A DNA stretch of 64,000 nt from Pseudomonadota bacterium (GTDB taxonomy: Bacteria > Campylobacterota > Campylobacteria > Campylobacterales > Sulfurospirillaceae), in NCBI GenBank assembly GCA_017860615.1, contig JAGDMU010000007.1, positions 6,534 to 70,533 on the forward strand, read 5' to 3'. Position 1 is the stretch's first letter; each line of letters starts with the position of its first letter. This document shows positions 32,749 to 55,631 of the stretch, in pieces. The notes below the pieces were generated by a model. The model did not search any database, was not told the DNA's origin, and worked only from the letters and a program-made list of their open reading frames with translations. Position numbers and translations under genes: made by a program.

Positions 32749-32754
32749 TGTTAA

Positions 32755-32814: not shown

Positions 32815-32831
32815 AAACTAGGTCTATCTCA

Positions 32832-34604: not shown

Positions 34605-34620
34605 GAAACTGCCTTCTGTT

Positions 34621-34895: not shown

Positions 34896-35057
34896 GCTTG
34901 GGGATAAAATATACGTATGAGAAAAGTATTATGAATAAAAGCTATTTTCCTATAGCACTTATCAAAACAATTTGAGAGATTCTACGTATATAGATATGTC
35001 ATAATTCCATACGTTAGGTTTACACGTTTGTTTCAAATTACATATTGAGGATGATAC

Positions 35058-35735: not shown

Positions 35736-35743
35736 TGATATTG

Positions 35744-35938
35744 TCAAACTTTAATAAAAGACAGCCAATACGCCAAAGATATACTAGCAACGCCAGAAAG
35801 AATTAACTCCGTAATAAAGTGAATCAGATTATTGTTGCCTTTTTCTATCCTGACAGCCCAATAAATTTCATACAAATGATCACTGCAAGTGTCAGTGGTA
35901 AAAAGCGCGATGGTTTCTCCCTGCCACTCAAATTTCAT
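35744..35938 (-). CDS. Small protein with a C-terminal TM helix
   Basis: 64-aa ORF ending FITELILSGVASISLAYWLSFIKV. Confidence 0.5.
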   Translation of the reverse strand: MKFEWQGETIALFTTDTCSDHLYEIYWAVRIEKGNNNLIHFITELILSGVASISLAYWLSFIKV

Positions 35939-36024
35939 ATATATTAACTTTATATGATTACTTAGTATAATTATATTTCAATTGTGAAAGAAGCATATAG
36001 AAAATTTGCATAATTGGGATAACA

Positions 36025-36918: not shown

Positions 36919-36976
36919 CCTAAAACCTTAAAAAATAATAGGTTATGTAATTGTGCGATGGTTGAATAATAGACAT

Positions 36977-37294
36977 TTATTTGATTGAATCTAAGATACG
37001 GTTGACAATTGCTTTAGCTTTTTCTTTGTCATGGTTTGATCCAATGCCCGTTACCCATTTATCAATTTCATAACGGTCAAAGAGGAGTTTACCTTTTTTA
37101 TAGTAGTGAACACCTTCGATGAATTCATTGTCTTTTAACGCATAAATTCTGTCTTTTGAATAGCCAAGATAGGTGCTTAGTTCATTAACATTAAGCCATC
37201 GTTTTTGCGAAGCAGTATCCAAACGTTGCTCAATGATAGTTAATTTTTCAAGTATTTGAGGTAAAAGTTCAAGATTTTCTAATGCGATTTCCAT
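36977..37294 (-). CDS. Excisionase-like HTH DNA-binding protein
   Basis: RWLNVNELSTYLGYSKDRIY ... LLFDRYEIDKW. Confidence 0.8.
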   Translation of the reverse strand: MEIALENLELLPQILEKLTIIEQRLDTASQKRWLNVNELSTYLGYSKDRIYALKDNEFIEGVHYYKKGKLLFDRYEIDKWVTGIGSNHDKEKAKAIVNRILDSIK

Positions 37295-37478
37295 TTGACA
37301 TATCCTTATTATTCAGAGTAATATTTTATTACAATTCAAAAGATCATCTTATATAAGTCTTTTGTAATTCTATCATGTAGGAAGATAACTTATTTGTGTA
37401 TCTTCCTGCAAAATTTGAAAGATATTTGCGCTTACAATAAAGTTATAATGTCATACTTCAAAGTCACAAAGGTAATTT

Positions 37479-37769
37479 ATGAAAAGTATCATCATAAGCC
37501 TTCTGCTCTTGCTAACCCTACAGTTATTTGCCTCAGATGTTCAAAGTAACTTCGCCATTCAGCCAGACTCGCAAAATTGTGAATCGATAATAAAAGATGG
37601 GAATAAAGATTTACTTGTTCAAAGAGGTTGTTGTTCACATCATGGCGGAGTTTGCGGTTGCAAAAGTGGTCGAGTAACCTGCTGTGACGGTAGTTATAGT
37701 CCAAGCTGCACTTGTAAAGGCGGCGAAACTATTATTGATGAAGATGAAGGGTTTAAAATCAAGCTCTAA
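37479..37769 (+). CDS. Small secreted Cys-rich protein
   Basis: Signal peptide MKSIIISLLLLLTLQLFA; GCCSHHGGVCGC...CCDGSYSPSCTC. Confidence 0.75.
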   Translation: MKSIIISLLLLLTLQLFASDVQSNFAIQPDSQNCESIIKDGNKDLLVQRGCCSHHGGVCGCKSGRVTCCDGSYSPSCTCKGGETIIDEDEGFKIKL

Positions 37770-37907
37770 TAAATAAATTCTATTTACAATTTTATAAATA
37801 AAAACTATTTTAAATAAATTTTATTTATTTGCTTGAAAAATGGTTGTATCACCGACAAATCGCACTTTACTATATTCCCATTGCACTTTTAGAAACAATA
37901 TTTAAGA

Positions 37908-38540
37908 TTAGAAATGTCTTACATATCCAGTTTCTGGGGATATCTCAATCGTACGATTTTGCGTACCATCTGTGATAACAATGGTGCATCTTGCAGTAAT
38001 AAGGTTTTGATGTGGAGCAGTAGCAGGAAACGAGGTGTTATCGTCATAAGGGCGACCAATTTCATCAAAAAATATTCGTCCACCAGCAGAGCAATTATTT
38101 GTAATTGTTGTAATTCCATATTTACGAGTCAAGTCAAGATTTTGATTACGATTGTTTCCTAATGATGAGTCACCTGAAAGAACAATAGCTGTATTTAGAG
38201 GATCTTTTGCATATTCTGCTGTATCACCTAAAGCTGCGTTTTGATTTTTATCTGAAATAATCCAATAAACAAGATTTCCATTAGCGGAACTATCTGCACT
38301 AAAGTGAATATGCCATCTTTCACGATAATAAGTTGCATCATTTGCATCAAATTTATTATCCATCATTGCTAAGTGTTGTGTATAACGAATATGACTTACA
38401 ATTTGATCAGCAGCTTCAATAATAGTATTGCGTTGAAAGCTAGCAGAGACAAAATATGACAATATTCCTACAATAACAATGACAAAGACAAGCTCAAGCA
38501 TAGTAAAAGCTTTGCGTGTAATAGTTTTAGAGGTTTTCAT
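37908..38540 (-). CDS. Prepilin-type (type IV pilin / T2SS pseudopilin) protein
   Basis: RKA|FTMLELVFVIVIVGILS cleavage/methylation motif; C-terminal IEISPETGYV. Confidence 0.88.
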   Translation of the reverse strand: MKTSKTITRKAFTMLELVFVIVIVGILSYFVSASFQRNTIIEAADQIVSHIRYTQHLAMMDNKFDANDATYYRERWHIHFSADSSANGNLVYWIISDKNQNAALGDTAEYAKDPLNTAIVLSGDSSLGNNRNQNLDLTRKYGITTITNNCSAGGRIFFDEIGRPYDDNTSFPATAPHQNLITARCTIVITDGTQNRTIEISPETGYVRHF

Positions 38541-38599
38541 GTGGATTATTCTAACATAATTTTGATATTATGGCTTGAACAATAATACAAGGGATTATC

Positions 38600-38908
38600 A
38601 TGCATCCTTCGCTCCAAAACATTACTGCTATGACCATAACCTTTGCTGGATTGATCATCGGTCTAACGACATTTGATACTTACCTCTATAATTACCATAC
38701 TAAAGAAGCTACTCAAACAATTTTACATGAAATGGTTAAAGAGTGTCATATGATTAAAGCAAGAGAAAAGCTTGATGATAGTTTTGAACAAACAAGTTTG
38801 GCAGTAAATAAAATGCTAGGAAGAGGTAATCAAGCTCTTACTCAAGAATCTTATTTGGAGTTGGTTTCTTTATGCGTGGTTACTCAAAAGAATAAAGCTA
38901 AAATCTAA
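38600..38908 (+). CDS. Hypothetical protein with an N-terminal TM helix
   Basis: 102-aa ORF, AAGGGA RBS. Confidence 0.55.
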   Translation: MHPSLQNITAMTITFAGLIIGLTTFDTYLYNYHTKEATQTILHEMVKECHMIKAREKLDDSFEQTSLAVNKMLGRGNQALTQESYLELVSLCVVTQKNKAKI

Positions 38909-38971
38909 TGTTAAATATTATGGTAAATGTAAAATGAAATATCAAAATAATCTTTCTACAAAAGAACTCAA

Positions 38972-40981
38972 ATGAAGCTATTGTATATACATATTGAAGA
39001 AGATTACAAGCACATCAAAGCTGGCGGATATTATTTCGATAAAGAGTTTAATGTTATAAATTTCAACACTACACCTGGACAAAGGAAAATTACATTAGAA
39101 ACAAACCCAAATTATCATAGACCGTTTAATCAAAATATCAATAATATCTCTTGTATTGTTGGGAAAAACGGTGTTGGAAAAACTACGTTTTTTGAATTGA
39201 TTATAGCTCCATTACTATGGAGATTAGATGGACCTCTTTTAGAGAATAAAATCCATTTACTTTATTATGATGAAATCGAAAAAGAATTTTATATCCAATC
39301 TTATACAGGTCAAGCAAATAATTGGGGACTATATTTAGATGGCCATAAAATACATCTTTTCAAAAATAAAAAAAATAATAGTACGAAAATAAATGTAGAA
39401 TCTGGCTCTACGTATAGATCCGTTTTTCCTTATCAAATGAATATTATTTTTCATAGCCTTTCTCCCTTTGATAGAATTTATGATTTATTGAAACTACAAT
39501 TATCAGATGCTTCGTATGGTCAAATAGAACACTATCGAAAAAGATTGAAATACATTGGTACACGACAAATAGAAAACAATGAAACAATCTATGAGTATAT
39601 GACTTTGATAAATTTGATCTCAATATTACTTGATAATAACTCAAAAGAAATGTTTAGTAAGTTAGGGTATGAGTATGGGAATATCGAAATTAATATAGTG
39701 AATGAAGAAGATGAACTTACTATTAATATCCCTGAATTTACTTCATTTAAAGATGAATCAAAAAAAATGTTGGAAGTTTTTTTTACAGAAGAATCATATA
39801 TGGAATTAAAAGAAAAATTATCTTTTTATTTGATTGCAGATTCAATTAATGGAGATTTTTTCAAAGAATTATTACTTAAAAGCGTAAAAATAGATACACC
39901 AAAAAGATTTCTTAATTTTTTATCAATAATAGCTGAAGAAAACCAAAATACAATTTCTTTAGAGACTATTATGGAAGCGATTTATCAATATCTATTAAAT
40001 TTAAATTTTCCAGAACAGATTAAAGAATTATGTACCAGTGAAAATTATAAATTTTTGACAGAAATCTTTGAAAATAAAAAGGAATTATTAACCATTGATC
40101 AATTTAGTGATAGTGAATATTTAAAAGAAAGAGTGAATAGCCCTGAGTTTTTAAAGCTTTTAAAATTTATTAAAAAGCTAGCAATTAGGAACCTTATTAA
40201 TTTTAAAATGTATTTGTTAAAAAAAGGGGAATCTTTTGATTATTTTAGGTTAAGTTCGGGGGAAAAAACATTATTATCTTATTTTGCAAATATCCTTGGG
40301 AGAATAAGAGAATTAGATGACATTCAAGCCGAAAATGCTACTTACTCCTCTATACAAAATAAATCTTACTTAATACTTATCGATGAAGTAGAACTTCATT
40401 TACATCCTGAATGGCAGAGAAACTTTATTAAACAATTAAATGAATTTTTTACTTATTTTGATAAAAGTAAAAAATTTCAATTTGTTATTGCAAGTCATTC
40501 TCCTTTTATTGTAACTGATATATACGATGAAAACATTATTTATTTGGGAGAGAACAACCCTAACACCAAAACATTTGGTGGGAATATATTTGATATTTTC
40601 AAGGATGATTTTTATGTGAGTAATACCATAGGTTCTTTTAGTGAAGGGATTATTAAAGATTTATCAGAAATCATCTATATCTTATTTGCTATACAAAAAG
40701 CTTTAAATGAAGGTAACTTTTTTATACTCAGAGAATACTTAGATTTGATGTATGAAACTTCCGAAAGAGAGGAAGAAAATAGAAAATTATTAGAGGAGCT
40801 TGTAACATTTTTGCAAGTAAAGAATAATAGTAAGTTTTCTAAACTTTCTACAAATCGCTTTCTTCCTTTAAAGGGAGATTTTATGCATGAATTTAACAAA
40901 ATCAAAAATAATATTGGTGAAGAAGTTGTTAGAGAACATTTCGATAAAATGTTAAATTATATACGAGAATCACATGCTTAA
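38972..40981 (+). CDS. ABC/SMC-type AAA ATPase, PtuA-like
   Basis: Walker A GKNGVGKT, signature LSSGEK, Walker B LILIDEVELHLHPEWQ, SHSPF; overlaps the HNH gene. Confidence 0.85.
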   Translation: MKLLYIHIEEDYKHIKAGGYYFDKEFNVINFNTTPGQRKITLETNPNYHRPFNQNINNISCIVGKNGVGKTTFFELIIAPLLWRLDGPLLENKIHLLYYDEIEKEFYIQSYTGQANNWGLYLDGHKIHLFKNKKNNSTKINVESGSTYRSVFPYQMNIIFHSLSPFDRIYDLLKLQLSDASYGQIEHYRKRLKYIGTRQIENNETIYEYMTLINLISILLDNNSKEMFSKLGYEYGNIEINIVNEEDELTINIPEFTSFKDESKKMLEVFFTEESYMELKEKLSFYLIADSINGDFFKELLLKSVKIDTPKRFLNFLSIIAEENQNTISLETIMEAIYQYLLNLNFPEQIKELCTSENYKFLTEIFENKKELLTIDQFSDSEYLKERVNSPEFLKLLKFIKKLAIRNLINFKMYLLKKGESFDYFRLSSGEKTLLSYFANILGRIRELDDIQAENATYSSIQNKSYLILIDEVELHLHPEWQRNFIKQLNEFFTYFDKSKKFQFVIASHSPFIVTDIYDENIIYLGENNPNTKTFGGNIFDIFKDDFYVSNTIGSFSEGIIKDLSEIIYILFAIQKALNEGNFFILREYLDLMYETSEREEENRKLLEELVTFLQVKNNSKFSKLSTNRFLPLKGDFMHEFNKIKNNIGEEVVREHFDKMLNYIRESHA

Positions 40982-41957
40982 GATTAGTCAAACATCTCAA
41001 AATGCAATATTGCATTATTTACAAAAAAATGATTATTGCACAGATAAAAAGATAAATGAAGCAACCTTTGGATTTTTAAATATACCTAATAGAACAAAAT
41101 ACTTTTTAAAAGACTTGCCATTTGAAGAAAATTATAAAATTTCTCATAGTACCTTAATGTCTCCCTATCATAATAATGAGAACATAATAGAGGCTTTTTT
41201 TGATAAGTTGCAAAGAGTCTATGGAGTGGGTTCTCGTGATATTTTTTATAATACAGGAAAAGATGATGAAGTAGATAAAACTCTTGATACTAATGAAGCG
41301 CAAGTAAAAGTTATTAAACTTTTTTTATTAAAAAAATACTCCAATATGTATAATAATTTTAGAAAAAATTATGGAAAAAGAGTTATTGAAGAAACAGGTA
41401 ATAATATCTGCCCATACTGTTATCGAAGTTATATTAGTGTTATTGAAGCAGAAACAGGAAAAAAATCATTAACTCCTGATTTAGATCATTTTTATCCAAA
41501 ATCAAGATACCCATTTTTAGCAGTTACATTATCAAATTTAGTTCCTTCATGCCTTTTATGTAACGAACGAGCAAAAAATGATCAAGATTTTTACAAAAAT
41601 TCTATATATCCACCACAAAAATTTTTTGATGAAATTGAATTCGATTATGATGTGTATCTAAATAAGATTTACATAAAAAACTATAAACAATTGATTATTG
41701 ACCCTAAATATAAAATACATTTAGATACTTTTTTAATTCAAGAAACCTATGCAACACATACAGAAATTTTACAAAACATCATCAATAAACATAAAAAATA
41801 TAAACAATCTAAGATTCAAGATTTGGTAAAACACACTGTAGGATTATCTGGAACGTATGTCAAAAAGATAGTTTTTTATGAGTATGAGTATATGAATAAA
41901 AAAACAGAATTACTGTATAAACTCAAAAAAGATTTATATGAAAAGATAATTAAATAA
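40974..41957 (+). CDS. HNH endonuclease, PtuB-like (Septu-type pair)
   Basis: CPYC...DLDHFYPKSRYPFLAVTLSNLVPSCLLCN. Confidence 0.85.
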   Translation: MLKISQTSQNAILHYLQKNDYCTDKKINEATFGFLNIPNRTKYFLKDLPFEENYKISHSTLMSPYHNNENIIEAFFDKLQRVYGVGSRDIFYNTGKDDEVDKTLDTNEAQVKVIKLFLLKKYSNMYNNFRKNYGKRVIEETGNNICPYCYRSYISVIEAETGKKSLTPDLDHFYPKSRYPFLAVTLSNLVPSCLLCNERAKNDQDFYKNSIYPPQKFFDEIEFDYDVYLNKIYIKNYKQLIIDPKYKIHLDTFLIQETYATHTEILQNIINKHKKYKQSKIQDLVKHTVGLSGTYVKKIVFYEYEYMNKKTELLYKLKKDLYEKIIK

Positions 41958-41987
41958 ATTTTGAAAAAACAATTTTGATCGTATTCT

Positions 41988-42167
41988 GTATATAAATCCG
42001 TTGATATCACCAAAGGCAAATAAGGTTTAGAGTATGCCTTTGCCCTTAAACGTCAAATAGACACTATTGTTGAGTATTTAAAGAAACAAGCATTGCCTAT
42101 GAAGATTAGTGTTGAGAATGTGGCCAAAATGGTTATTAATCCGTTTGAATTAGTATATAAAGAATAA
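41988..42167 (+). pseudogene. Possible 3' gene remnant with an in-frame stop
   Basis: VYKSVDITKGK*GLEYAFALKRQIDTIVEYLKKQALPMKISVENVAKMVINPFELVYKE*; protein-like composition, no start codon. Confidence 0.35.
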
Positions 42168-42259
42168 AGAGTCATGATGAATTCAAATTCTTTATTAAAA
42201 TTTTCATTTTCAACAGTAATGATAATTCATTAAATACGCATATTAAGCTTATTATAATT

Positions 42260-43696
42260 TTAATCTGATGGGTTTTCAATCTGTTGAATAGCATCATACG
42301 CACGTCTATGACCTAATTTATCCGCTTTACGAAGATACTCTATAGCATTTTTGTTTGAGTCTTCCGTACGCAATAATTCAACCCCTAAATTAAAAGCAAT
42401 ACTTGCATCATTAGGATCCAATGTAAATGCTTTTTTTAGAGCACGTACAGCTTCATCATGGCGGCCTAGTTCTACCAAAGCGCATGATACGTGATACCAA
42501 CCAGAAGCAATATCGGGATACTCATCTATCAGTTTAGCAAAACATTGAAGTGCTTTATTATGTTCTCCAGCATATCCATACACAACCCCTTTTAGATGAA
42601 TTAATGCACCAGTATCTTGTTTTGTCTTTAAATTTTCGTCTATTTGAAACAAGGCATCACCATATTTTTTTTGCTGAACGAGTCGCTCTATCATATGCAT
42701 AAATTCAACTTCCGTCAACGATTTGTCCTGCTGTTCTTCTTGGATATGCAGTTTATTTTTTAACTTTGGTTTCGTTACCACGATATCGTAAGGGACTTTT
42801 TCTATTTTATTGGCACCTTGTATCTTGCGTATTTTAAACAACGCAACTTCATTAGGTACATGCGCTTCGACCAACTCAATGTAGTGCTTTATTCGTTCAT
42901 CTGGACATAACATGCCAAAGATTATTTCAGTAATATCTCCAGGCCATTCAAATAAGCCTCCAAATGGTTCTACATATCGCCATTCTTCCTCATAACTCCA
43001 ACATGTATGCTTTGTAGTTATTGCTTTCTGAAATGTTTTGTCTGAAAATGCAACTTCATATCCTGAAACATATAGTTTAAAGTTTTCATCAACTGCAAAA
43101 GTCATTTCTGTATTAAAACCATTTTTATCCGTTAATGGCAATTCATCAGAATATATAATGGGTAAAAAGTGTTTTTCATTAGAAAGTTTGCATTCACCAT
43201 GATTGGAAAATCCGATACATATCCCCGTGTGGCTATTTCCATAGTGCGCCCACATTAAAGGATGGTCCGGCTTACATGAAAGACTAAAAATTCCAACTGC
43301 ATTTAACTGACGATCTATATGTAAAAATAAATTTAATGGGTTAGATGGGTAATGTCCTGTTTTTTCCATAATAAACTTTGCATATAAATCATACGATTCA
43401 TCTAAATTAACATGTCCTTTTATCATATTTAATAGTTTTTGTATTTCTTCCAGAGAAAGCCCATAAAAATCTCCATTTGATTTTTTTGCTTTCACCGCCA
43501 TATAGACAAACCCAGATACGGCAGCTTTTTTGAGTTTAAGTATTTGTTCTTCTATCCAAGTGTGACCAATATCCTGCAATGAGCATTCAAATGGATCATT
43601 CAAGCCTTCGGCTGTAGACAAATACACTTTTCCTGTCGTAAATATATCCTCGGTATATTTTGAATCTGAACGATACTTATAAAAAACTCGATTCAT
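42260..43696 (-). CDS. DUF2971-like domain fused to C-terminal TPR repeats
   Basis: YKYR, LNDPFE, LMWAHYGNSHTGICIGF, TK...WSYEEEWR; TPR-like repeats after about residue 330. Confidence 0.8.
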   Translation of the reverse strand: MNRVFYKYRSDSKYTEDIFTTGKVYLSTAEGLNDPFECSLQDIGHTWIEEQILKLKKAAVSGFVYMAVKAKKSNGDFYGLSLEEIQKLLNMIKGHVNLDESYDLYAKFIMEKTGHYPSNPLNLFLHIDRQLNAVGIFSLSCKPDHPLMWAHYGNSHTGICIGFSNHGECKLSNEKHFLPIIYSDELPLTDKNGFNTEMTFAVDENFKLYVSGYEVAFSDKTFQKAITTKHTCWSYEEEWRYVEPFGGLFEWPGDITEIIFGMLCPDERIKHYIELVEAHVPNEVALFKIRKIQGANKIEKVPYDIVVTKPKLKNKLHIQEEQQDKSLTEVEFMHMIERLVQQKKYGDALFQIDENLKTKQDTGALIHLKGVVYGYAGEHNKALQCFAKLIDEYPDIASGWYHVSCALVELGRHDEAVRALKKAFTLDPNDASIAFNLGVELLRTEDSNKNAIEYLRKADKLGHRRAYDAIQQIENPSD

Positions 43697-43907
43697 AAGC
43701 TTTTCCCTTCATTAAATATATTAATTTTCTATAACTATCTGCAATTTAATTGGTGTATTAACTTAATTGTGGACTAATACTTCATGAATCCAATACGTAT
43801 GTGGTGCGTTCAAACTTAACCAAATAAACAATTTGAGCATTTTCTTTAATCAAGAGAGTATATAGATAACTATTATTTAAAGTTGTCTACTTCTTTATTG
43901 TATTATT

Positions 43908-44579
43908 TTAAGTATTACAAAAATCTAAAAAGATATGTTGAATTTTTTTTATATTATTTTCGTCTTGATGATGTAGTGATTCATAACAATAAGGACAAGC
44001 AATTATTTTGTCACTTTTTTCCAATTTTTTTATGCAGTTAGCTGCTTGATAATTTTTGCGATTTTTAAATAATTGCATATTCAGGCTATTTATAATATTT
44101 TCAACTTTTCCATTTAAAACATACCCAACAATAGATCCATTTGTATATTTTTCAGTTCTAAAATTTTCTATTCCCGTATCAATGTATCTGTTTATATAGC
44201 TTGATGCTTTTTTGGTTCCATAGTTATTTTCGTATAAATTTTTAGCTTCAAAAAAATATTCTTTTGATTCTGGAGAATTCCAGTTAAATATTCTTATATC
44301 AATTATTGGTAATGATTTTGGATTGTTATGGCCAATTGGTAAAGTATCTTTAATGAGTGGATATTGAGGTGTGATATCTAAAGGATAATGATTAGTTAGA
44401 TCAGATTTTTTCATAAATGTTATTAAGTGGTTTGTGAACTGATCCTCAAACCACTTAAGATTAAATTGTTGATTCTCTAATGCTAAAAAATATGCTTCCA
44501 ATAAAAGTTTAAATGACAAAATACTAATCGGTGGAATATGGCATTTAGTCTTAGCTAATGTCTTCTTCGATAGCGCCAT
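43908..44579 (-). CDS. Putative PD-(D/E)XK nuclease partner of the methylase
   Basis: IIDIRIF...YFFEAKNL; start overlaps the methylase stop. Confidence 0.55.
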   Translation of the reverse strand: MALSKKTLAKTKCHIPPISILSFKLLLEAYFLALENQQFNLKWFEDQFTNHLITFMKKSDLTNHYPLDITPQYPLIKDTLPIGHNNPKSLPIIDIRIFNWNSPESKEYFFEAKNLYENNYGTKKASSYINRYIDTGIENFRTEKYTNGSIVGYVLNGKVENIINSLNMQLFKNRKNYQAANCIKKLEKSDKIIACPYCYESLHHQDENNIKKIQHIFLDFCNT

Positions 44580-47500
44580 TAATACATACTCATTATCTCT
44601 AAAGTTATATTTTGAGCGTCTTCAATGGCACTCGATAGATTCCAAAATCTTTTTTGATTCGGTTTAACAACATAAATTTTATCATCGTCAAAGTACGTTA
44701 AATTTTTTTGCACATATATACCTTTTGAGTATTCGCGTAAAGTATACCGATTGAGCATTGATAATATATGATTGAACTCTTTTTCAGCGTAAGTTATAAT
44801 ATGCTTATCTATTTCTTTTCCTACTTTATCAACAAACTGGAGTACTACTAAAGCAAGAGGACTAAAATGAGATATTTGATAAACAGTAGATATTATTTCT
44901 AGCTCACTATCTTTTAAAGTTTGATTTAATTCATAACACAACTTCTTGCTGTATTCGATAGATTCTGGAGATTTAGAATTTAATGGCTTCATCGAGATTG
45001 ACTTATCGCCTTTATGAAATAAATCTACTTTATACTTAATTGCGTCATCTATTAATATTCTCTCATTTTGAGAAAAATCAAGAATATCATAAATCGTATT
45101 ATTAATCTCATTTTCATTAACTTTATGATGAGATTCCCCAATAATACGATCAATAGTATTTGCTATTTCATGGATTTTATCATTATCTATATTCGGCAAT
45201 GGTAACTCTAAATATTCATCTAACATGATTTGTTCTCTTTCAACCGTATACGAAGAAGCAGTCATTAACAAAAAATAATGAGCATAGTTTGAGCTAAATA
45301 CTACAGATAAATATTTTAAAATAATTTCATTTTTTGTTTCAGAATAGAACCCGTAAACACCGTCTCTAAAGGAACAATCATAATCTATATATGAGCCACA
45401 TATTTGATTCCCAGATATAAATCCTTTTTTCAATACAAAATGCGGTGCTTTAAAAATTTCTGGATACTTCGCCGTCATATTAAATTTAGTTATCTGTGGT
45501 ATGTCTCTTAAAGTAGTGGCTTGATAGATTTCTAAATAAACTTTTTGAGTTGGTAGAGTTGCCTCTTTAAGAGAATCATTGATTGGATAATTGCTATTAA
45601 CAGTATATAGCCTATTGATTGTAGATGCCTTTAAATATGGGAGTTTACATAAATCTTGATCTTCTTTCACAATCCTTTTTCTATTTGATAATAACTGAAA
45701 TCCAACACCATGTTTAATGTTGTTTTTCTTAGCAAAATCCATAAAAGAGATACTTTTGTTTAATAACCTATTTAATAAATTAAAATCATTTAAATTACCC
45801 CATTGTGCAATTTTCCATATCTTTGTATTAGGCTTTTGACATTCAAATCGTGGTAAATACTTTATGTCACTAGAATCGATAATAATACCCTCTGCCAAGT
45901 GATTTTTTATATATGTCTTAGGAGACCAATACTCTATTGTTTTGGATGGATTTGTAGGAATTTTTGATTGAAAAAAATATATAGAAGCGGGAACGACAGC
46001 TGATGAGAATAGTTGTCCGCCAAATGCTTTTGGAGCTTTTCTGAGTATAGATAAATTATATATTTTTTCTACATAATTCTCATTAAAAAGCCATTTCCTG
46101 AAATTTTGTGAAGGCTGTTGAGTTTTAGTCAATAGCTTAGTAGGTGCCAAAAGTGCTATTTTTCCATTAGGTGCTAAGAGTGTTGATTTATATATAAATG
46201 GTATAACGAATTCTGGTGGAAAATTTCTGTCCTGACAATACTGTTTAATGTGTATTGGAGCATTTTCGCCATAAGGAGGATTTCCGACAATAACATCATA
46301 ATCTTTTTCAATCTCTTTATTGTCAATAATAGTATCTGTTCTATATAGGTTATACCCTTGTTTAAGTAAAGTATTGTCATCTTTATCATTAATTAAGTAT
46401 GGAAATTTTTCTTCACCTTGATACCACAACGTTGCAGGATGTAAAAAGTCAAGCATGGCCAAATACAAACTAAATGTTGTAACCTTAATAGAATTTTTAT
46501 TTAGTTCTATACCGTAAATACTATAATGCATTAATTCTTTTAATATTTTAAAGTCTACACCTTTATTGGGGTGAGCTTTTTGCCACCTTTTTACAATTCT
46601 TTTGTAAGCTTCAACCAAAAAAATACCTGAACCGCAAGTTGGATCTAAAATTTTAACTTTATAGTCTTGACTATCGATTGGTAAAACCTCATTTAGCATA
46701 AGTTCAACCAATTCAGGAGGCGTATAATAACTCCCACTTAGTTCTTTGTCTATTTCACTTAAAAAATTTTCATATATTTGACTTAAAAGCTCAATATTTA
46801 TTATGTCAAATTTAAAAATTCTCCAGTCACTAAATAGATTTTCATTTTTTATTTCACCATTGATAAAACATTTTTTTAATAATTGTAAATGTTTCCCTTT
46901 GATCGTTTCTCGCTCAAGCTCAGTTACTGGAAATACATTACCATTAAAATTTTCTTTTATTCTGCCAAAAAAAGCGTATGTTGCTTCCTCATCTTCCAAC
47001 AAATCAAAATATGAATTTACTTCTTTATTTTTGCCTTTATAAAATTCTTCGGGAGTAGCCTTTTTATCTTCAAGGTACATAATAAAGAGCGATCTCATGA
47101 TAAGCGCATGAATAATATCTAAACTAATACCATCTTGTTTAAATACCTTAGCTAAATTTACAAGGCTTGCAACTAGAAACTTATCAATTCGTTTGTCTAA
47201 TTTTATTTTTTTGAGATATTCATTATTTCTTGTCCAAATTGAACCGCTATCAACTGCATGAGCTGAAAATATTTCAACAAGTTGACTCAGCTTTTCCTTA
47301 TCATCAAACCCACTCGCTACTATTTCATGATTTTTTAATATACCTTGAATATCTTTTGAATCATTGTTAAATGCAACTGGTTTACTATTGCAATTGTAAA
47401 TTCTTATTTCTGTTAATGCCGTAACATATAGGAACGTTACTTTTTTGAAGTTCCATAAATTATGATGAGTCTTTGCAATTTCTCTTATTGTTTCTTCATC

Positions 47501-47635
47501 AAATTGCAAGACTTCTTTAAAAAAGACTGTTGGATATTTACCTGAGTAATGGATTTTATCAATCCCTAATTCTTTTTCACGCTTAGAGGCTTCATGAATA
47601 TTGTTAAATTGTAAAATCTCATAAAATTTACTCAT
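44579..47635 (-). CDS. Large N6-adenine DNA methyltransferase (type IIG/Eco57I-like architecture)
   Basis: GSYYTP, motif I LDPTCGSGIFL, motif IV VGNPPY, long C-terminal TRD-like region. Confidence 0.88.
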   Translation of the reverse strand: MSKFYEILQFNNIHEASKREKELGIDKIHYSGKYPTVFFKEVLQFDEETIREIAKTHHNLWNFKKVTFLYVTALTEIRIYNCNSKPVAFNNDSKDIQGILKNHEIVASGFDDKEKLSQLVEIFSAHAVDSGSIWTRNNEYLKKIKLDKRIDKFLVASLVNLAKVFKQDGISLDIIHALIMRSLFIMYLEDKKATPEEFYKGKNKEVNSYFDLLEDEEATYAFFGRIKENFNGNVFPVTELERETIKGKHLQLLKKCFINGEIKNENLFSDWRIFKFDIINIELLSQIYENFLSEIDKELSGSYYTPPELVELMLNEVLPIDSQDYKVKILDPTCGSGIFLVEAYKRIVKRWQKAHPNKGVDFKILKELMHYSIYGIELNKNSIKVTTFSLYLAMLDFLHPATLWYQGEEKFPYLINDKDDNTLLKQGYNLYRTDTIIDNKEIEKDYDVIVGNPPYGENAPIHIKQYCQDRNFPPEFVIPFIYKSTLLAPNGKIALLAPTKLLTKTQQPSQNFRKWLFNENYVEKIYNLSILRKAPKAFGGQLFSSAVVPASIYFFQSKIPTNPSKTIEYWSPKTYIKNHLAEGIIIDSSDIKYLPRFECQKPNTKIWKIAQWGNLNDFNLLNRLLNKSISFMDFAKKNNIKHGVGFQLLSNRKRIVKEDQDLCKLPYLKASTINRLYTVNSNYPINDSLKEATLPTQKVYLEIYQATTLRDIPQITKFNMTAKYPEIFKAPHFVLKKGFISGNQICGSYIDYDCSFRDGVYGFYSETKNEIILKYLSVVFSSNYAHYFLLMTASSYTVEREQIMLDEYLELPLPNIDNDKIHEIANTIDRIIGESHHKVNENEINNTIYDILDFSQNERILIDDAIKYKVDLFHKGDKSISMKPLNSKSPESIEYSKKLCYELNQTLKDSELEIISTVYQISHFSPLALVVLQFVDKVGKEIDKHIITYAEKEFNHILSMLNRYTLREYSKGIYVQKNLTYFDDDKIYVVKPNQKRFWNLSSAIEDAQNITLEIMSMY

Positions 47636-47642
47636 GAATGTC

Positions 47643-47876
47643 CTAAAAAAAATAATCTTCGAGTCGAATATTTTTCGTTTCTAATACTTTTAAGCATTTA
47701 AAGAAAAATACTGCATTAAATGCACCCCTACTCATTTTATTGTTAAATGAATATTCCGTAAGCTCTTCACCATCTTTATTTAATCGCTCGACCAAGTCTC
47801 TTACATGTAAATTTTTTTTTGCAAGTTCTGACTTGATGATTCTTTTTGGTACGTCTTTAATATCCATATCCAACAC
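47643..47876 (-). CDS. DUF6471-like small HTH protein
   Basis: IKSELAKKNL...DLVERL...SFNNKMSRGAF; 7 nt upstream of the methylase. Confidence 0.7.
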   Translation of the reverse strand: MLDMDIKDVPKRIIKSELAKKNLHVRDLVERLNKDGEELTEYSFNNKMSRGAFNAVFFFKCLKVLETKNIRLEDYFF

Positions 47877-48212
47877 CTAATTGTTTTACCTTACAATTGT
47901 AGCATAAAATGATTGTATTTATATCGTTATTGGTTATAAATATACAATTATTAATATATTTATATTTAAATAGTATAATCGATTTCGATATAATTATAAT
48001 CGATAATATTAAATAATGAACTCTTGATTGCATACCACTTTCTTCATAGTAAAAACTATATCCTTTTATCATTTATAAGAAAATGCCGTACTGCCACTAA
48101 AAATAAAGTGTATTTTTTTATAAAAAATTTAACTGGGTTAAAACATAATATTGTAAATCATCAAGTTAAAGTAAGTAATGATTAGAATGTCTATTGTGTT
48201 TTGTTACACATA

Positions 48213-49310
48213 TTATTTCAAATACCGATACCCACTCATCCACTGATAACCAGTAATCTCTGCAAATCTTTTTGCAGTTAATTTTTCATTTTTAGACAAA
48301 TACGCCTTAATACTCTCCACCTCTCCTTTACTAAGTGGACGCATAACTTCGACACACTCCTCCAAGGGTTTTAAAAACCAAAAAGGTAAATCTCTACAGT
48401 TATTTTTTCTTTCGTATTTTTCTAGAATTCGTGGCTTATTTGTTATTTTACGTCGTTTAAAAAAGTATTGAAACTGATACGGCCAATTTTGAAAAAGCTC
48501 CACAGATCTTTTGATGATTCTAAACATCTGTCTTGTAGTAAATTGTTCAGGGAAAATTTGATGCCTCTTCAAATCATTTTGAACTATTTTCTTCCAATAA
48601 CTAGCATGACTCATATGTCTCGTAAATATCCTCAGCACATAAAAATAACTCATTGAATAGTACCATCTACCATTCAATATAAAATAGCCTCGTTTTGCAA
48701 TACTCAAAAGCCTTCTAATAGCTTTTAGCCCTTCTGAATATTGTGGAATCATAATAGGTGTTCTATCTAATAAATTTGCTCCACATTTAAAACAAAACTC
48801 CATACCTTGATCTTCTAGTGAATAAACCGATGCAAGCGGAGATCCACACTTTGGACACTGTGACTCAAGAAAACAACAATGTTTTGTACAAGCATTCACA
48901 AAATAAAGCTTCCACTCTTTTTTATAATAAGCATTTTCTTTTAGACATAAAGGACAATAACACAGCCCTCTCTCGCGTTGATGATATTTTATATCATGCG
49001 ATAAAGTTACTATCCAGCGCTGCTTTCCTTTGCCATTAATAGTTTCTTGGATATACCCTTCATAGCTTTTAAGGCGCATTTGTTGTATTCGCTCAATGCT
49101 CACATCCGTACACTCGGACAAAGTTTGCCAAAAGCTTTCAGGGTACTCATAAATATCAATATCTTTGTTGAAGTAACTTTTACCTGCCCAATGTTGCGAA
49201 AAGAGTCCTACAACGGTTGTAAAGTTAGCCTTTGCAATACGTGTTAGCCACGAAGAAAGAAGCTCGCCCTCAAATGGTTCGACAGTAAACAACCATTTTT
49301 GAGCTGACAT
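48213..49310 (-). CDS. tniQ: TniQ/TnsD-family target selector
   Basis: PFEGELLSSWLTRIAKAN, CPLCL, CTKH..FLESQCPKC, CFKC; about 200-aa C-terminal extension. Confidence 0.9.
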   Translation of the reverse strand: MSAQKWLFTVEPFEGELLSSWLTRIAKANFTTVVGLFSQHWAGKSYFNKDIDIYEYPESFWQTLSECTDVSIERIQQMRLKSYEGYIQETINGKGKQRWIVTLSHDIKYHQRERGLCYCPLCLKENAYYKKEWKLYFVNACTKHCCFLESQCPKCGSPLASVYSLEDQGMEFCFKCGANLLDRTPIMIPQYSEGLKAIRRLLSIAKRGYFILNGRWYYSMSYFYVLRIFTRHMSHASYWKKIVQNDLKRHQIFPEQFTTRQMFRIIKRSVELFQNWPYQFQYFFKRRKITNKPRILEKYERKNNCRDLPFWFLKPLEECVEVMRPLSKGEVESIKAYLSKNEKLTAKRFAEITGYQWMSGYRYLK

Positions 49311-49312
49311 AG

Positions 49313-50203
49313 CTATTTCCTCCGATCACTTGGTCTTTCGTATGGAATTGACTCAAGTATTTCTAAATCAATCGATTCTTTATTATTTTGAATCGCATAA
49401 ATTGTAGATTTTGTAAGAATTTTGGCAACTTCTCCAATTAAACCTTCACTCATCCAATGGATCTTTTGTACAAGAGATTTACGATGTAAACGAGAGGGTT
49501 CACGAAGTGGCAACGTCTTCTCAAAACTCATAAGAAGCCTTGCAAAATCTTCATTGAGTTCCCACGTATCAAGCCGCAAGGTATCAAAACGCCTCGCAAT
49601 CTGTGTTTCAGAAGAGAGTGTGCGTTGCACCTCTGGCACGCCTGCTACTACAACACTTACTTTTGCATTGGTACCAAGTTGTTTGAGCGCTGAAAGAAAT
49701 TTTGTTTGTTCTCTAAGACCACCATGATAGATATCCTGCATTTCATCAATAATAATCATCTTTGTACCCAAAGCACTAAGAATATTTTCTACCTGCTTTT
49801 CTTTACGTGAAGATGATTCTGTCGTTAGGTATGGTACATTCAAAGCATCCAAGATTTTTTCATAAAGAATATTCGAAGAAGGTGCAATGGGTGCTGAAAA
49901 ATAGACTATTGGAATATGATTTTGGCCTCCCTTTAAAAAAGAGGGATGTTGTTCCATAAAATAATTGAGTATCGTTGTTTTACCATTGTTGCTATCCCCA
50001 ACAATAGTGAAATGTTGCATTCGATTATTCGCTTTTTCCAGGAAAGCGATTTCAAGTTCATTGAGAATACTAAGTGCTTGAGGATATGGTATCCACACTT
50101 TTTCTTGAGCTTTTTGAATCCGCTCAATCGGTGTTTTCAATAAAACAGCTCGAACACCTTCTAAAAGTGATGCTTGATGATCTAATATCTCTTTTTCACT
50201 CAT
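49313..50203 (-). CDS. tnsC: TnsC/TniB AAA+ ATPase
   Basis: GDSNNGKT, MIIIDEMQD, QIARRF, SEGLIGEV. Confidence 0.9.
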   Translation of the reverse strand: MSEKEILDHQASLLEGVRAVLLKTPIERIQKAQEKVWIPYPQALSILNELEIAFLEKANNRMQHFTIVGDSNNGKTTILNYFMEQHPSFLKGGQNHIPIVYFSAPIAPSSNILYEKILDALNVPYLTTESSSRKEKQVENILSALGTKMIIIDEMQDIYHGGLREQTKFLSALKQLGTNAKVSVVVAGVPEVQRTLSSETQIARRFDTLRLDTWELNEDFARLLMSFEKTLPLREPSRLHRKSLVQKIHWMSEGLIGEVAKILTKSTIYAIQNNKESIDLEILESIPYERPSDRRK

Positions 50204-52098
50204 TTGTCACCTCTTTCAGATATTCCCTCAAACGGTTTGATGTTTGAAAACATATCTTCATCACCTTCTTCAAAAGTCTCTTCGTTCACACTAGGAACTA
50301 TTGACTTCGCTGGCTTAGATTCATTAATGACCGGTGATGCTTTGAGTTTAATGGCTCTTTCATTTTTTTTACGAGTCTGAAGAGTTTTTTGGGCAGCATC
50401 TTTTTCAAGGTTTTTCATCCTCTCGATTGAAAGGAATACATCATGTTCACTATGTTCTCTACGCTCATCGGCATCCAATTTCTTCTTAACTGCACAATAT
50501 TCCCAAAGCGAGACGCCTGTCGCTTTTGCTCTACGATCTTTAAGTGGGATGCTGTGATACTGCTTTGTATCAGGATCATAGAAATAAATGAGACTGATAT
50601 CTCGTGGATCTCTTCGTATGAGATACGTTTTAGAGCTTTTTCCATGTTTATCTAAAGAGCGTGGTATAAAGCTATTGAGCACATCAGAGTAATACGTAAT
50701 CCCATCTAAAACAATTCCGTAGCGCTGGATGGTTCTTTCATCATAGGGGAGAAGATTTAATCGAAGTCTTGCAGCATCTTTTTTCTCAGCTCTCATTATC
50801 CTTCCACGAGGTGGTGTATTTGGTCCACCAAGCATTCCTTCTAGATAGCGGGCTATTGGACTTTTTCCCAAAGCTGAGTGAACTTTATGATGGTACACTT
50901 CTGTAATTAAAATAGTAAGCCACTTTTCAAATTCTTCAAGCGTCATATTGGCATGTTTGACAGAATCGTAAGTTCCTTTTTGGGTGATATTTGAAAAAGT
51001 GGTTCCTTTGAGTGTGTGAATATCTTCATTGAGAGTTCTGACCAAACGCTCAATATGCCCTCCAAAATTCGGACGACCAACAGGGCGCCATACTGCTGTC
51101 ATCTTGTACTCTTTGCAGACCATTTCAATATCTTTACCTCTAAACTCTTTTGCATTATCCATATGAATCATGCTAGGGAAACCTTCAAGTGGCCATTTCG
51201 TTTGAATGCCATATTTTACGAGAATTTCATCTTTTGAGAGAATTGCATTGGCCAAGCATTGCCCCGTCCCAAAATAACCTGGTGAATCGAATGAAATGTA
51301 AAAACCTGCGATCATCCGACTGTAAACATCAATGGCTAGTGTAATCCAAGGACGACCAATTACTTCTCGATGCTTACTATCCACCAATTCAATATCTACT
51401 CGTGTATGATCTATTTGTATAACTTCCAAAGGATAATTACCATCAGGAAACTCCCCTTTTATCGGATAAAGAGGATGAACTGATTTTTTACCTTCGCGTT
51501 TTTTCATGCTAATGCGCTTATCTAACGCTTCCACTCGCCTTCCTATAGTTGCTAAACTAGGAGGTTCAATATTCGCATTTCTGCATCTAAGCACAATATC
51601 TTCATAGGTTTTTTGAACGGTTGGTTTTTGTTCAGAGAGATAATACTCATCCAAGGCACTGGCAATAATAGCTTCAAGTTCTTCAGCTAAACGCGATTTA
51701 CCTTTACCACCAGTAGTTCCTTCATAAATTAAAGAAGTCAAACGCTGTGTTTTTTCATAAGCCTTCAACCAATTATAGATACTACTTGAAGCGACATTGC
51801 ATTCTTTAGCCCTTTGATTGACTTTTTCTCTTGTTCTATTTTCCAAAAGTGGTTCAATGATTTTAAAACGTTCTTCGGCTTTTTTTAAATGATGTTCTGG
51901 TACTTGCGATAGGTCTTCATAGACAGTATCTTGCCTTTCTTCTTCAAGCTCACTAGAGAGGTCTTGAATAAAAAGTGTTTCGATTTTTCCCGTTGCGAGA
52001 TTTTTTGCTAAAACTTTATCAATATCCAATAATTTACGAATTTCATACTCTTCATTCTGGTAAAAGACATGTGTTCCGCTTCGTATATCAAGGCTCAT
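50200..52098 (-). CDS. tnsB: TnsB DDE transposase
   Basis: IQIDHT (D), HMDNAKEF (D), GHIERL (E); GRPWITLAIDVYSR; Mu-transposase-like C-terminus. Confidence 0.93.
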   Translation of the reverse strand: MSLDIRSGTHVFYQNEEYEIRKLLDIDKVLAKNLATGKIETLFIQDLSSELEEERQDTVYEDLSQVPEHHLKKAEERFKIIEPLLENRTREKVNQRAKECNVASSSIYNWLKAYEKTQRLTSLIYEGTTGGKGKSRLAEELEAIIASALDEYYLSEQKPTVQKTYEDIVLRCRNANIEPPSLATIGRRVEALDKRISMKKREGKKSVHPLYPIKGEFPDGNYPLEVIQIDHTRVDIELVDSKHREVIGRPWITLAIDVYSRMIAGFYISFDSPGYFGTGQCLANAILSKDEILVKYGIQTKWPLEGFPSMIHMDNAKEFRGKDIEMVCKEYKMTAVWRPVGRPNFGGHIERLVRTLNEDIHTLKGTTFSNITQKGTYDSVKHANMTLEEFEKWLTILITEVYHHKVHSALGKSPIARYLEGMLGGPNTPPRGRIMRAEKKDAARLRLNLLPYDERTIQRYGIVLDGITYYSDVLNSFIPRSLDKHGKSSKTYLIRRDPRDISLIYFYDPDTKQYHSIPLKDRRAKATGVSLWEYCAVKKKLDADERREHSEHDVFLSIERMKNLEKDAAQKTLQTRKKNERAIKLKASPVINESKPAKSIVPSVNEETFEEGDEDMFSNIKPFEGISERGDK

Positions 52099-52732
52099 AG
52101 ATACTCTCCAAGATAGTGTATAACGACAATTTTACATTCAAGTCTACTTTGATTTTCTTATATCGTACAAGTGCCCAAAGTGTTGGCACAATGTCTATTT
52201 GTTCAGAAGGGTCTGGGGTGATTTTTGCGAGTAATTCATTTAAGCGGTTAAAAGGAGTGAAAGCAGTATAAATTTTTTCATACTGCTTCGGGTCAATGTA
52301 TTCGTAATCTAACAAAAATTTGATATTCCAAAACAAGTCTTCATTTTGCAAATAAGGGCATCTTTCGGTGAAAATACGAAAAGTCCAATTCTTTTTTTGT
52401 TTGCAAAATTCTATTGCTGCACGAAATTTATGTTCAAACTCGTCAAATTTCTCCAGTAACTCACTGCGATATTTTACTTCACCTAAAATGTAAGAACCAT
52501 CATTTAGTGTGAGTAAGAAATCAGGAGTATAGGAGCGATCTTTGCCTTGAAACTCATATTCAATAGTTAATGGCTGATCATCAAAAGCTTTGATTTGAGG
52601 TAAATAATCAAAGAGGAAGTAAAAATCTCGTTCAAGCTTAGATTCAAAAGAGACAAAACCATGCAAAGCTTTATTGGAGCCAATTTTGCCAGTGATATTG
52701 CGATAGTTTTTAGGGATTTTGCGTTTTCCCAT
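52088..52732 (-). CDS. tnsA: TnsA endonuclease
   Basis: FESKLERD, QPLTIEY, YTPDFL, GEVK. Confidence 0.9.
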   Translation of the reverse strand: MGKRKIPKNYRNITGKIGSNKALHGFVSFESKLERDFYFLFDYLPQIKAFDDQPLTIEYEFQGKDRSYTPDFLLTLNDGSYILGEVKYRSELLEKFDEFEHKFRAAIEFCKQKKNWTFRIFTERCPYLQNEDLFWNIKFLLDYEYIDPKQYEKIYTAFTPFNRLNELLAKITPDPSEQIDIVPTLWALVRYKKIKVDLNVKLSLYTILESIYEP

Positions 52733-52783: not shown

Positions 52784-53518
52784 TTATACCCAATATTGTT
52801 TAATGTCTTCAATTGGATCACTCGCTTTAGTGCGGTGCACCATTGCATGGCAATTTGGACAAAGAGGCACCAAATCTTGCGTCGGTTTTACACTGTAATT
52901 TTTCTTTATTTTATTTAATGGAATAATGTGATGAACATGAATAAATCCATCACCAAGTTCTCCATATTTCTGCGTAAAATCAAATTTGCAAATAAAACAT
53001 TTACACCCATAATGCCTTATACAAGCATCTCTAGCTGCTTTATTTCTTTCATACGCATTAACTTGTGTCTGTATCATACTTCCTTCTGGGTAACCATCCT
53101 CAGGAACACGGTTTTCATCTTCTGGATAGGTTATATTTTGCGATAGTACCCGTTGAACTTCAATTTGTTTCTCTAAAGTATCAAGATAGGTAATCCGACG
53201 ACTTAAAATATCAGTTGACAACCTTTCATTTGAATAAATAATTTCAATATTTGTCATTTTATAACCATGTGGATACTGTATATTCTTCAAGTCTTGCTTA
53301 TATTTACCAGTATAGACAGCTTTTGCCACAATATAACCATCAAAAGAATAATAAACAGTTGACCCTTTATAAAATTTTTCTGGGTTGCGTTTACGAAAAT
53401 CAAAAAAGAAATTATGCCTCTCCTTAGGCAAGGTTTCATAAAAATATTCACGTGCACCATGAATATCTAGCTCTCCAAATGCATCTACATTTTTTCCCAA
53501 TCTAAATAATAAATCCAT
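52784..53518 (-). CDS. McrA-like HNH endonuclease with an uncharacterised N-terminal domain
   Basis: EG...YERNKAARDAC...CFICKFDF...IHVHH...LCPNCHAMVH. Confidence 0.85.
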   Translation of the reverse strand: MDLLFRLGKNVDAFGELDIHGAREYFYETLPKERHNFFFDFRKRNPEKFYKGSTVYYSFDGYIVAKAVYTGKYKQDLKNIQYPHGYKMTNIEIIYSNERLSTDILSRRITYLDTLEKQIEVQRVLSQNITYPEDENRVPEDGYPEGSMIQTQVNAYERNKAARDACIRHYGCKCFICKFDFTQKYGELGDGFIHVHHIIPLNKIKKNYSVKPTQDLVPLCPNCHAMVHRTKASDPIEDIKQYWV

Positions 53519-53795: not shown

Positions 53796-54123
53796 GTTCT
53801 CCTTTTAGATCTTAAATTAATTTACAAAAGATATTTTATAACTTATATAATATAATGTATATACTATATAATAAGTGCTTTTAGTTGCGCAGAAGAACTA
53901 GAGACATATGAAAGTACTACAAGGCTTAATCTTACGGTAATCATTTACTAAAATCTATGTGTAACCTAATTATTAGCAATCAATCCATTACCCTTAATAT
54001 AACTTTATTTTTTGTAAAAGTGAGTTATTCAATATTAAATAACTCGTATATACTACATAAAATCAACAGGATAGAACTTAGAATGTGTTATTATTATTTT
54101 ATGAATACAAGATGCTAATGAAT

Positions 54124-54256
54124 AATCCAAGTATCTTTAAAATTTTTGGAGGTTAGTCCAATTGTCTTTGAATAAAGTCCAAGTATCTTTGTCACAAAAC
54201 TATAGTAAATACTATATTTTTATGCTATTTGGTCTAATTGTCTTTGAAAAATTACA
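54124..54256 (-). repeat. tnsA-proximal transposon end with four transposase-binding sites
   Basis: Sites at 54124-54140, 54155-54171, 54176-54192 and 54231-54247, reverse complements of tcaaaga(c/t)a(a/c)ttggact; terminal CA at 54255-54256. Confidence 0.88.
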
Positions 54257-54261
54257 ACGTA
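54257..54261 (+). repeat. Target-site duplication ACGTA, right copy
   Basis: ttaca|ACGTAtaaaa. Confidence 0.92.
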
Positions 54262-55631
54262 TAAAATCAGCTCTTTCAAGCATCAACTTCCAATTTCCTG
54301 CCCAAAAAATAACAATAAACCTTTCACCTTCGGATCTCAAAAAAGAGGGAAGCCACTTTGATTTGATCATCGCTCTTCTCATTGCTATCCAAAAAGAGCG
54401 TTTTACCTGTAACGATTTTTTTATCTTTGGCGAGCTTGGGTTGGATGGCAAAGTCAAGAAAACCAATGCCATTTTTCCTATTATTCTCTCTCTTGCAGCA
54501 CACATGCCAAACCTTCGTGTTTTGATTCCAACAGAACTACTCTCAAAAGTACAACAAATTCCCAATATTGAAGCATATGGTGTTGAAACACTGCATGAGG
54601 CTCTACTCTTTTTTAAAGAAAAACGCTTTAATACAGAAACACCTTCAGATAAGCAGATTTTTTGTGAAAATGCTTTAGAAATTGAAGGTAAACACTATTT
54701 TTATAGCACTCAGTTTCCACTGGACTTTAGCGATGTTTTAGGACAACACCGAGCCAAACGCGCTATGCTCATCGCTGCTGCTGGTATGCACAACCTTTTG
54801 ATGGAAGGAAGTCCAGGATGCGGCAAAAGCATGAGCATCAAACGTCTTCGCTACATCTTGCCTCCTCAAAGCATCGAAGAGATACTCGAATCCAACGCCT
54901 ACCAATCACTTCAAGAAGAGGACGTTGAACTAAGCCCTCTTAGACCTTTTAGGTCACCCCATCACACCTCTTCTCGCCCGTCCATCTTTGGTGGAGGCAG
55001 TTCGCAAAGTAGAGCAGGTGAAATTGCCCTCGCCCATAATGGCGTTCTGTTTTTCGACGAATTTCCCAATTTTTCTAAAACTGTTTTAGAGAGCTTAAGA
55101 GAACCACTTGAAGATCATCGAGTCCTCATCTCACGGGTCAATACGAAAGTAAGTTATGCGACCAAATTTCTGTTTGCAGCAGCGCAAAATCCTTGTCCAT
55201 GTGGCAATCTTTTTAGCCAGAGCCATGAATGCCGCTGTAGCGAAGTAGAAATCAATCGTTATAAAAACCGTATTTCCGAGCCGATTATGGACAGAATTGA
55301 TCTGTACATTCAGATGAGTGAAGAACATTCTAAAGAGCAAGGTCTTAGCTCAAAAGAGATGTTTGAGCAAGTGCTAAGAGCCTTTGTGATGCAAAAAAAG
55401 CGTGGTCAAAATGAACTTAATGGCAAGCTGGACGAACATAATACAATGCGCTTTTGTACATTGGAAACAAAAGCAAGCGAGAGCTTAGAGATAGCGCAGA
55501 GTCGTTTTGGACTGAGTCAGAGAAGTATCCATAAAGTACTTCGCATCGCACGTTCTATCGCCGATTTGGCGCAGAGTGAACAGATCTTACAAGAACACCT
55601 TCTTGAAGCCTTAAGCTTCCGTAAGCGTTAG
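54257..55631 (+). pseudogene. comM: comM 3' portion
   Basis: KITINLSPSDLKKEGSHFDL, GELGLDG, GSPGCGKS, FRSPHHTSS, LFFDEF, AAQNPCPCG. Confidence 0.93.

Follow-up and report, generated by a model that had tools for sequence, protein, structure and literature searches.

How a Tn7-like element equipped with only a short TniQ finds one position inside a protein-coding gene is the question raised by this locus. comM is a favoured landing site, reached by Tn6022 via TnsF, by Tsy elements, and by some CAST I-B1 guides. In Tn6022, targeting requires both TniQ and TnsF, and takes place at the Walker B motif (PMC10293859; PMC11014353). In the stretch of DNA analysed here (64,000 nucleotides, hereafter the window), comM is split by a transposon whose TniQ has 365 residues, and a sequence-only reading had proposed that this protein, mid-sized and with an HTH-like tail, binds comM itself. 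We asked which parts of this proposal stand, and which protein of the element is the likely reader of comM.

A Tn7-like transposon at codon 55 of comM

The borders of the element are placed by its ends, by the perfect 5-bp duplication ACGTA, and by the restored ComM, so that it spans 32749-54256 (21,508 bp, 21.5 kb) in the Arg55 codon of comM (...QESRER|IKSAL...), within the N-terminal Lon/ChlI-like domain (Table 1). The termini are TGT/ACA, and the ends hold three (left) and four (right) TnsB-type repeats, the latter at 54125-38, 54156-69, 54177-90, and 54232-45. The repeat core, AAAGAYAMTTRGAY, has seven copies in the 64-kb window, all within the two ends, with 0.01 expected by chance. When the element is removed in silico (32583-32748 joined to the sequence from 54262), ComM is restored as an intact protein of 511 aa, collinear and gap-free with the uninterrupted comM of two same-genus genomes. 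The 3' fragment matches ChlI, Mg_chelatase, and Mg_chelatase_C in Pfam and the YifB family in NCBIfam. The Walker B motif (FFDEF) falls at residue 319 of the restored protein; the insertion lies at codon 55 instead.

Table 1. Features of the element, its comM flanks, and the predicted recognition site, in window positions
Feature	Positions	Strand	Evidence or remark
comM 5' fragment, codons 1-55 plus 1 nt	32583..32748	+	last 5 nt are the left duplication copy
Target-site duplication ACGTA, left copy	32744..32748		read off the sequence
Left end: terminal TGTTAATC, then three contiguous 20-bp TnsB-type repeats	32749..32814	+	repeat search
TnsE-like gene, 590 aa, first inside the left end, reading inward	32832..34604	+	relatives, Foldseek
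Variable cargo	34605..48212		Pfam
tniQ, 365 aa	48213..49310	-	ORF, Pfam TniQ, homologues, AlphaFold2 model, Foldseek
TniQ tail, codons 328-365, predicted three-helix, HTH-like	48216..48329	-	AlphaFold2, subfamily conservation
tnsC, TniB-type AAA+ regulator	49313..50203	-	Pfam TniB, E 1.9e-52
tnsB, DDE transposase, Mu-type C-terminal domain	50200..52098	-	Pfam Mu-transpos_C, HTH_Tnp_Mu_2, rve
tnsA, endonuclease subunit	52088..52732	-	Pfam Tn7_TnsA-like_N, E 2e-18
HNH-domain protein, between tnsA and right end	52784..53518	-	Pfam; treated as cargo
Right (tnsA-proximal) end; reverse complement begins TGTAATTTTTCAAAGACAATTAGACC	54120..54256	-	sequence, motif scan
Target-site duplication ACGTA, right copy	54257..54261		read off the sequence
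comM 3' fragment: Arg55 codon at 54258-60, Ile56 to stop	54257..55631	+	Pfam, NCBIfam
Recognition interval predicted earlier, +21 to +106 from the insertion	54280..54365		encodes a conserved ComM block
Narrower predicted TniQ footprint, +24 to +71 from the duplication centre	54283..54330		by analogy with TnsD/TnsC geometry

Conservation across the subfamily is limited to tnsABC, tniQ, and the TnsE-like gene; all else is variable cargo, which begins directly after tniQ in every member. In the window this cargo includes an AAA_21/AAA_15 ATPase pair, a DUF2971-TPR protein, an N6-methyltransferase with a DUF6471 HTH, a pseudopilin, and an excisionase-like HTH, and it differs at the same place in relatives (Wadjet, CBASS, McrBC, and others). 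The HNH protein was considered as a core gene and rejected, as its place is taken in relatives by unrelated genes, either for a 442-aa protein or for an SDH_protease protein. No cas genes and no CRISPR array were found in the element, which is an intact Tn7-like transposon and a defence-island carrier in a Campylobacterota genome. A 77-aa DUF6471 HTH protein beside tniQ was also considered, as a partner of TniQ, and rejected: it is encoded (47643-47876) between tniQ and the DNA methyltransferase, 7 nt from the latter, it again accompanies a methylase in a second element variant (L088:10695-10910), and it is absent from L001, L002, L005, and L006. It is probably the controller of a restriction-modification cargo.

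In its overall design, the element is close to the Tn6022/AbaR backbone of Acinetobacter (TnsABC, TniQ, TnsF, and TnsE; PMC10293859, PMC11014353), which also inserts into comM in one orientation with a 5-bp duplication, has a short TniQ (~370 aa), and carries resistance or defence cargo. However, Tn6022 inserts at Walker B, near codon 300-320, and not at codon 55, and it has TnsF, an inactivated tyrosine-recombinase-like selector, after tniQ, where the window element has none. Tn7 is alike in its fixed-distance insertion, with the tnsA-proximal end beside conserved coding sequence, but inserts downstream of glmS, whereas the present element disrupts comM from inside.

The sequence-only reading had placed the recognised sequence in a conserved comM segment on the tnsA-proximal side and had named a constant offset among relatives as a check. 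The 3' piece directly adjoins the tnsA-proximal end (54256), after the duplication copy (54257-54261), and the motif FQFPAQKITINLSPSDLKKEGSHFDL is encoded within it at 54288-65. The offset check, once run, was positive because the right ends of relatives adjoin comM at the same nucleotide: this is so for six elements in the same orientation (L001, L005, L093, L094, L095, and L006, the last with a TniQ of 43% identity), and a seventh (L096) lies within 2 bp. TniQ in the six is 43-87% identical, and the host ComM falls to as little as 50% identity. The tnsA end is always beside the 3' part of comM, the target-site duplications at this position read GAGAA, GCGCA, GAGAA, ACGCA, and GCGTG. Left junctions, read in L087 and L088, fit this insertion point as well. 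In the literature consulted we found no description of the codon-55 site, which is a second precisely used site in the gene.

Some individual loci at or near this site deserve mention. The right end of L096 seems to read TGACAAAA and not TGT, and its insertion point may be shifted by 2 bp. In L088 the host flank is nearly base-for-base that of the window (L088:1-290 against 32583-32830), and the element variant is different, with a TnsE-like protein of 85% identity and two left-end repeats against three in the window; this suggests independent insertions, or replacement, at one site in one host lineage. A comM in genome G044 that matches from residue 49 only was considered as an occupied site and rejected, as no element is there and the 5' region is degenerate. 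This same-order gene (L147, G044:C1:47000-66500, at ~18000-18300) is transposon-free, with its first ~50 codons degenerate or frameshifted.

The 365-residue TniQ and its C-terminal tail

The reading frame at 48213-49310 on the minus strand does encode a TniQ of 365 aa ending in ...KLTAKRFAEITGYQWMSGYRYLK, as had been read from the sequence. Residues 8-148 match Pfam TniQ (PF06527, E 6.2e-21), and the Pfam search of the 365 aa returned no family besides TniQ. The gene is the last of a tightly packed tnsA-tnsB-tnsC-tniQ operon, and it has 34 homologues in a set of 5.8 billion proteins, of which the closest seven are 75-85% identical and one 43%. It is a genuine gene, and a chance reading frame is excluded. 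Members of the subfamily were found at only three loci in a metagenome scan; a scan of GTDB genomes returned distant relatives only and no subfamily member, and of the genomes searched across the order, just that of the window contained the subfamily.

The alignment shows seven invariant cysteines of zinc-binding type (C119, C122, C141, C152, C155, C173, and C176), and the AlphaFold2 model (mean pLDDT 82) has a TniQ core followed by three short helices. Foldseek with this model recovers the TniQs of CAST I-F and I-B (327-402 aa), V-K TniQs, and TnsD (8v32_J), and the top matches are the adaptor TniQs of CAST I-F and I-B. The adaptors of CASTs are thus alike in structure and length; unlike CASTs, the window element has no cas genes or CRISPR, and its site is set by sequence context in unrelated hosts. 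The earlier argument that a mid-sized TniQ should be DNA-binding fails at this point: because these adaptors and the Tn6022 adaptor (371 aa) are equally long, 365 aa cannot separate readers from adaptors. The glmS selectors TnsD of Tn7 and of CAST I-B have the same TniQ-family N-terminal core and zinc-binding cysteines, but are 500-600 aa long, with three to four C-terminal HTHs over 36-50 bp, whereas the window TniQ has at most one small HTH. It lacks the long multi-HTH extension of TnsD, and has ~38 residues past the core, in one predicted three-helix unit. One small HTH touches only a few bases.

The helices of the tail are predicted at 328-340, 346-353, and 357-364 (AlphaFold2; pLDDT 68-90). 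The tail is present in 9/9 subfamily members, and A346, K347, G354, S359, Y361, and R362 are invariant across the nine; S359, Y361, and R362 sit on the last helix and are replaced in relatives inserted at Walker B. The assignment of the tail as an HTH is weak: the window's own tail matched no HTH family in Pfam, and in one orthologue only, that of L006, the tail gave HTH_IclR (0.0015), TrmB, and MarR matches, all below cut-offs.

Distant relatives at the Walker B site and exchange of tniQ

Distant TniQ relatives of 25-37% identity come from 21 genomes (L010-L085), in elements beside comM residues ~300-510. In these Walker B relatives, the insertion precedes the Walker B codons by ~45-60 bp, the tnsA end being again the nearer one, and the loci (for example L011:5736-11185 and L085:5695-11002) have only tnsABC, tniQ, and comM in common. 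A tblastn search found no TnsF homologue in the Walker B loci. These elements (L011, L013, L042, and L085 among them) share with the window the TniQ clade, the tnsABC-tniQ layout, the gene, and the orientation, and several have HTH-like tails; they differ in the comM site and in their varied tails. We found no literature description of them, and they serve here as a comparison set. In several Walker B loci, a convergent 590-660-aa gene without a family match lies directly after tniQ.

The C-termini of the TniQs at Walker B are of four kinds: none, HTH-like, zinc ribbon, and extensions that bring the total to 520-556 aa. The elements with tail-less proteins (332-358 aa; L043, L046, L085, L064, and L031), with a zinc-ribbon tail, and with long tails are all at one fixed Walker B position of comM, so that comM targeting in the TniQ clade does not in general depend on a tail. 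Specificity could reside in the TniQ core or in some unseen factor.

Two loci at codon 55 bear on the mobility of tniQ itself. In L096 (L096:1-5034), TniQ is 77% identical to that of the window, and TnsA, TnsB, and TnsC are 40-52% identical; in L006 it is the other way round, TniQ being 43% identical and TnsABC 62-66%. These identity patterns show tniQ to be, by all appearances, a module that is exchanged between backbones. L096 was considered as a natural swap experiment and found to be non-discriminating, as the nearest relatives of its backbone use the same site; because all three backbones already use the codon-55 site, the exchange seen in L096 and L006 is not a clean test of specificity.

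Selection of the comM site

In Tn6022, for which the reference was plasmid pA85-3 (L149), TniQ has 371 aa and TnsF 476 aa. This TnsF gave no tblastn match in the window or in ~148 loci, and none in the whole genome at E<=1, and a search for Tn6022 in the family of L042's genome did not find it. The other candidate is the 590-aa protein at the left end. It is found in this subfamily only (BLAST, jackhmmer), with 34% full-length identity in L006 and 76-85% in P0036-40, and it accompanies this TniQ in every locus that includes the left end. Searches of Pfam and NCBIfam with it gave no family match, and a distant homologue has a weak match to Pfam TnsE_C. The AlphaFold2 model is poor (pLDDT 42), with the C-terminal domain alone interpretable, and the best seven Foldseek matches in the PDB are all to the C-terminal domain of TnsE (E about 1e-2, probability 1.0). 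In Tn6022, tnsE is divergent, on the opposite strand, and the inward-reading gene of the window may be its counterpart, with its TnsE C-terminal match taken from the model of pLDDT 42. The protein was considered as a displaced TnsF, or a new comM selector, and rejected as the leading idea, since its structural matches are to TnsE C-terminal domains only. Just downstream of its gene, at 34614-34895, are two 106-nt direct repeats, 80% identical and 176 nt apart, and inverted repeats occur inside each of them.

Because neither the element nor the genome has a TnsF, and the one further conserved gene is TnsE-like, TniQ is the strongest candidate for selecting comM, and it appears to be the only plausible site selector that the element encodes. 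We put at about even the chances that TniQ selects the target by binding comM directly, as a compact TnsD-like protein. It would bind on the tnsA-end side, with contacts ~25-70 bp from the insertion (about 54283-54330), using its core (helical domain 1, two zinc sites, and helical domain 2) and probably also the three-helix tail. It would then nucleate TnsC, which would position TnsA and TnsB such that the element enters the Arg55 codon of comM, always in the same orientation and place, and creates a 5-bp duplication. The TnsE-like gene at the far end may offer an alternative route, into replicating plasmids. We infer that TniQ binds DNA, the place where it does so, and the participation of its tail.

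Other readings of the same data have to be weighed. A somewhat unlikely one is that TniQ is an adaptor only and that comM is read by another partner, either the 590-aa TnsE-like protein or a host protein, with the tail as a docking module. This would resemble the CASTs and Tn6022, whose 371-aa TniQ needs TnsF and docks it through a C-terminal helix, and short TniQs without large extensions are described as a hallmark of systems with an extra selector (PMC10293859); in addition, the top Foldseek matches of our TniQ are adaptors, and the 590-aa protein accompanies it at every available left end. On the other hand, searches of the element, the loci, and the genome gave no TnsF homologue, no further gene is conserved among subfamily members, and TnsE, which the 590-aa protein resembles, is known for targeting plasmids and replication forks. 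The window TniQ aligns with that of Tn6022 over residues 4-180 only (26% identity), with the C-terminal halves unaligned, so that its tail is not detectably a TnsF-docking helix. It is unlikely, too, that comM is read through the conserved core of TniQ only, with the tail serving for stability, regulation, or contact with TnsC or TnsB. The tail-less relatives (332-358 aa) that hold a fixed Walker B position argue for this, as do the lack of an HTH family match in the window tail and the case of AvTnsD, in which base-specific contacts are made by the N-terminal HTH1 and HTH2 (PMC13251919). However, the sequence recognised in those relatives is not the same, a further factor might be at work there, and the tail of the subfamily is a predicted folded three-helix unit, found in all nine members with S359, Y361, and R362 unchanged.

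We regard it as very improbable that the recognised sequence belongs to the opposite flank, within the 5' piece of comM (FSIVG...IQESRER, about 32690-32748), or spans the insertion point. The 5' piece is equally conserved across the order, TnsF recognition is reported to span the insertion point, and in AjTn6022 a 40-50 bp deletion on either side of the insertion site lowered transposition (PMC10293859). In Tn7, AvCAST TnsD, and crRNA-guided CASTs, however, the selector is on the right-end (tnsA-proximal) side (PMC13251919), and the conserved motif of our Walker B relatives is also on the right-end side, at about +45 to +60.

Should TniQ read comM by itself, the distinction between adaptor and reader would be blurred; TniQ as adaptor and TnsD as reader are said by Faure et al. 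to form a continuum. The codon-55 site is reached without TnsF, by a TniQ no bigger than the adaptor versions, and a TniQ that reads alone would represent a very compact protein-guided targeting module, together with a natural series for the study of specificity change. It is a possibility, which we put forward tentatively, that the 365-aa TniQ alone acts as a "mini-TnsD", needing neither TnsF nor Cascade nor a long array of HTHs to find one base position in a gene that is nearly universal; its wider clade would have evolved at least two comM sites (codon 55 and Walker B) and exchanged small C-terminal modules (none, HTH, zinc ribbon, or long). If true, no smaller site selector that is self-sufficient and evolvable would be known in the Tn7 family. 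The locus also adds to the evidence that mobile elements have repeatedly been selected to knock out natural transformation.

As to where a direct reader would bind, the interval proposed earlier (54280-54365) is reasonable in its side and its starting point, but is about twice as long as the 36-50 bp that TnsD proteins of 500-600 aa cover (EcoTnsD covers ~36 bp; PMC13251919), which by analogy would be too much for this TniQ. In AvTnsD, HTH1 and HTH2 of the core make base contacts ~35-53 bp from the insertion, right end proximal, the extra HTHs extend to ~74 bp, and TnsC occupies the gap (PMC13251919). Because of this Tn7/CAST geometry, we predict contacts in the narrower footprint of Table 1, and this estimate also takes into account that in the Walker B relatives the Walker B motif is at about +45 to +60, counted from the right end. 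On the same analogy, contact with the far half of the interval (KKEGSHFDL) is less likely.

The comM flank in 30 genomes of the order varies between +17 and +28, and its conserved part extends from +29 to +106. Among the right flanks of real targets, AAATC (54264-68) is invariant in 7/7, and TTTCCT (54294-99, +35 to +40) and AAAGAGGG (54342-49) in 5/5 of those reaching that far, the five being all that are long enough to compare, four of them from closely related hosts, and coding constraint also shapes these runs. TTTCCT falls within both the earlier interval and the narrower footprint, and AAAGAGGG within the earlier interval only. At the junction itself, the right end of the element (54162-54261) can be read without a stop, and in the same frame, into the rest of comM (...LFGLIVFEKLQ|RIKSAL). 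L001, L005, L093, L094, and L095 share this open frame; in L006 a stop interrupts it two codons ahead of the junction, and the frame is thus not conserved across the subfamily.
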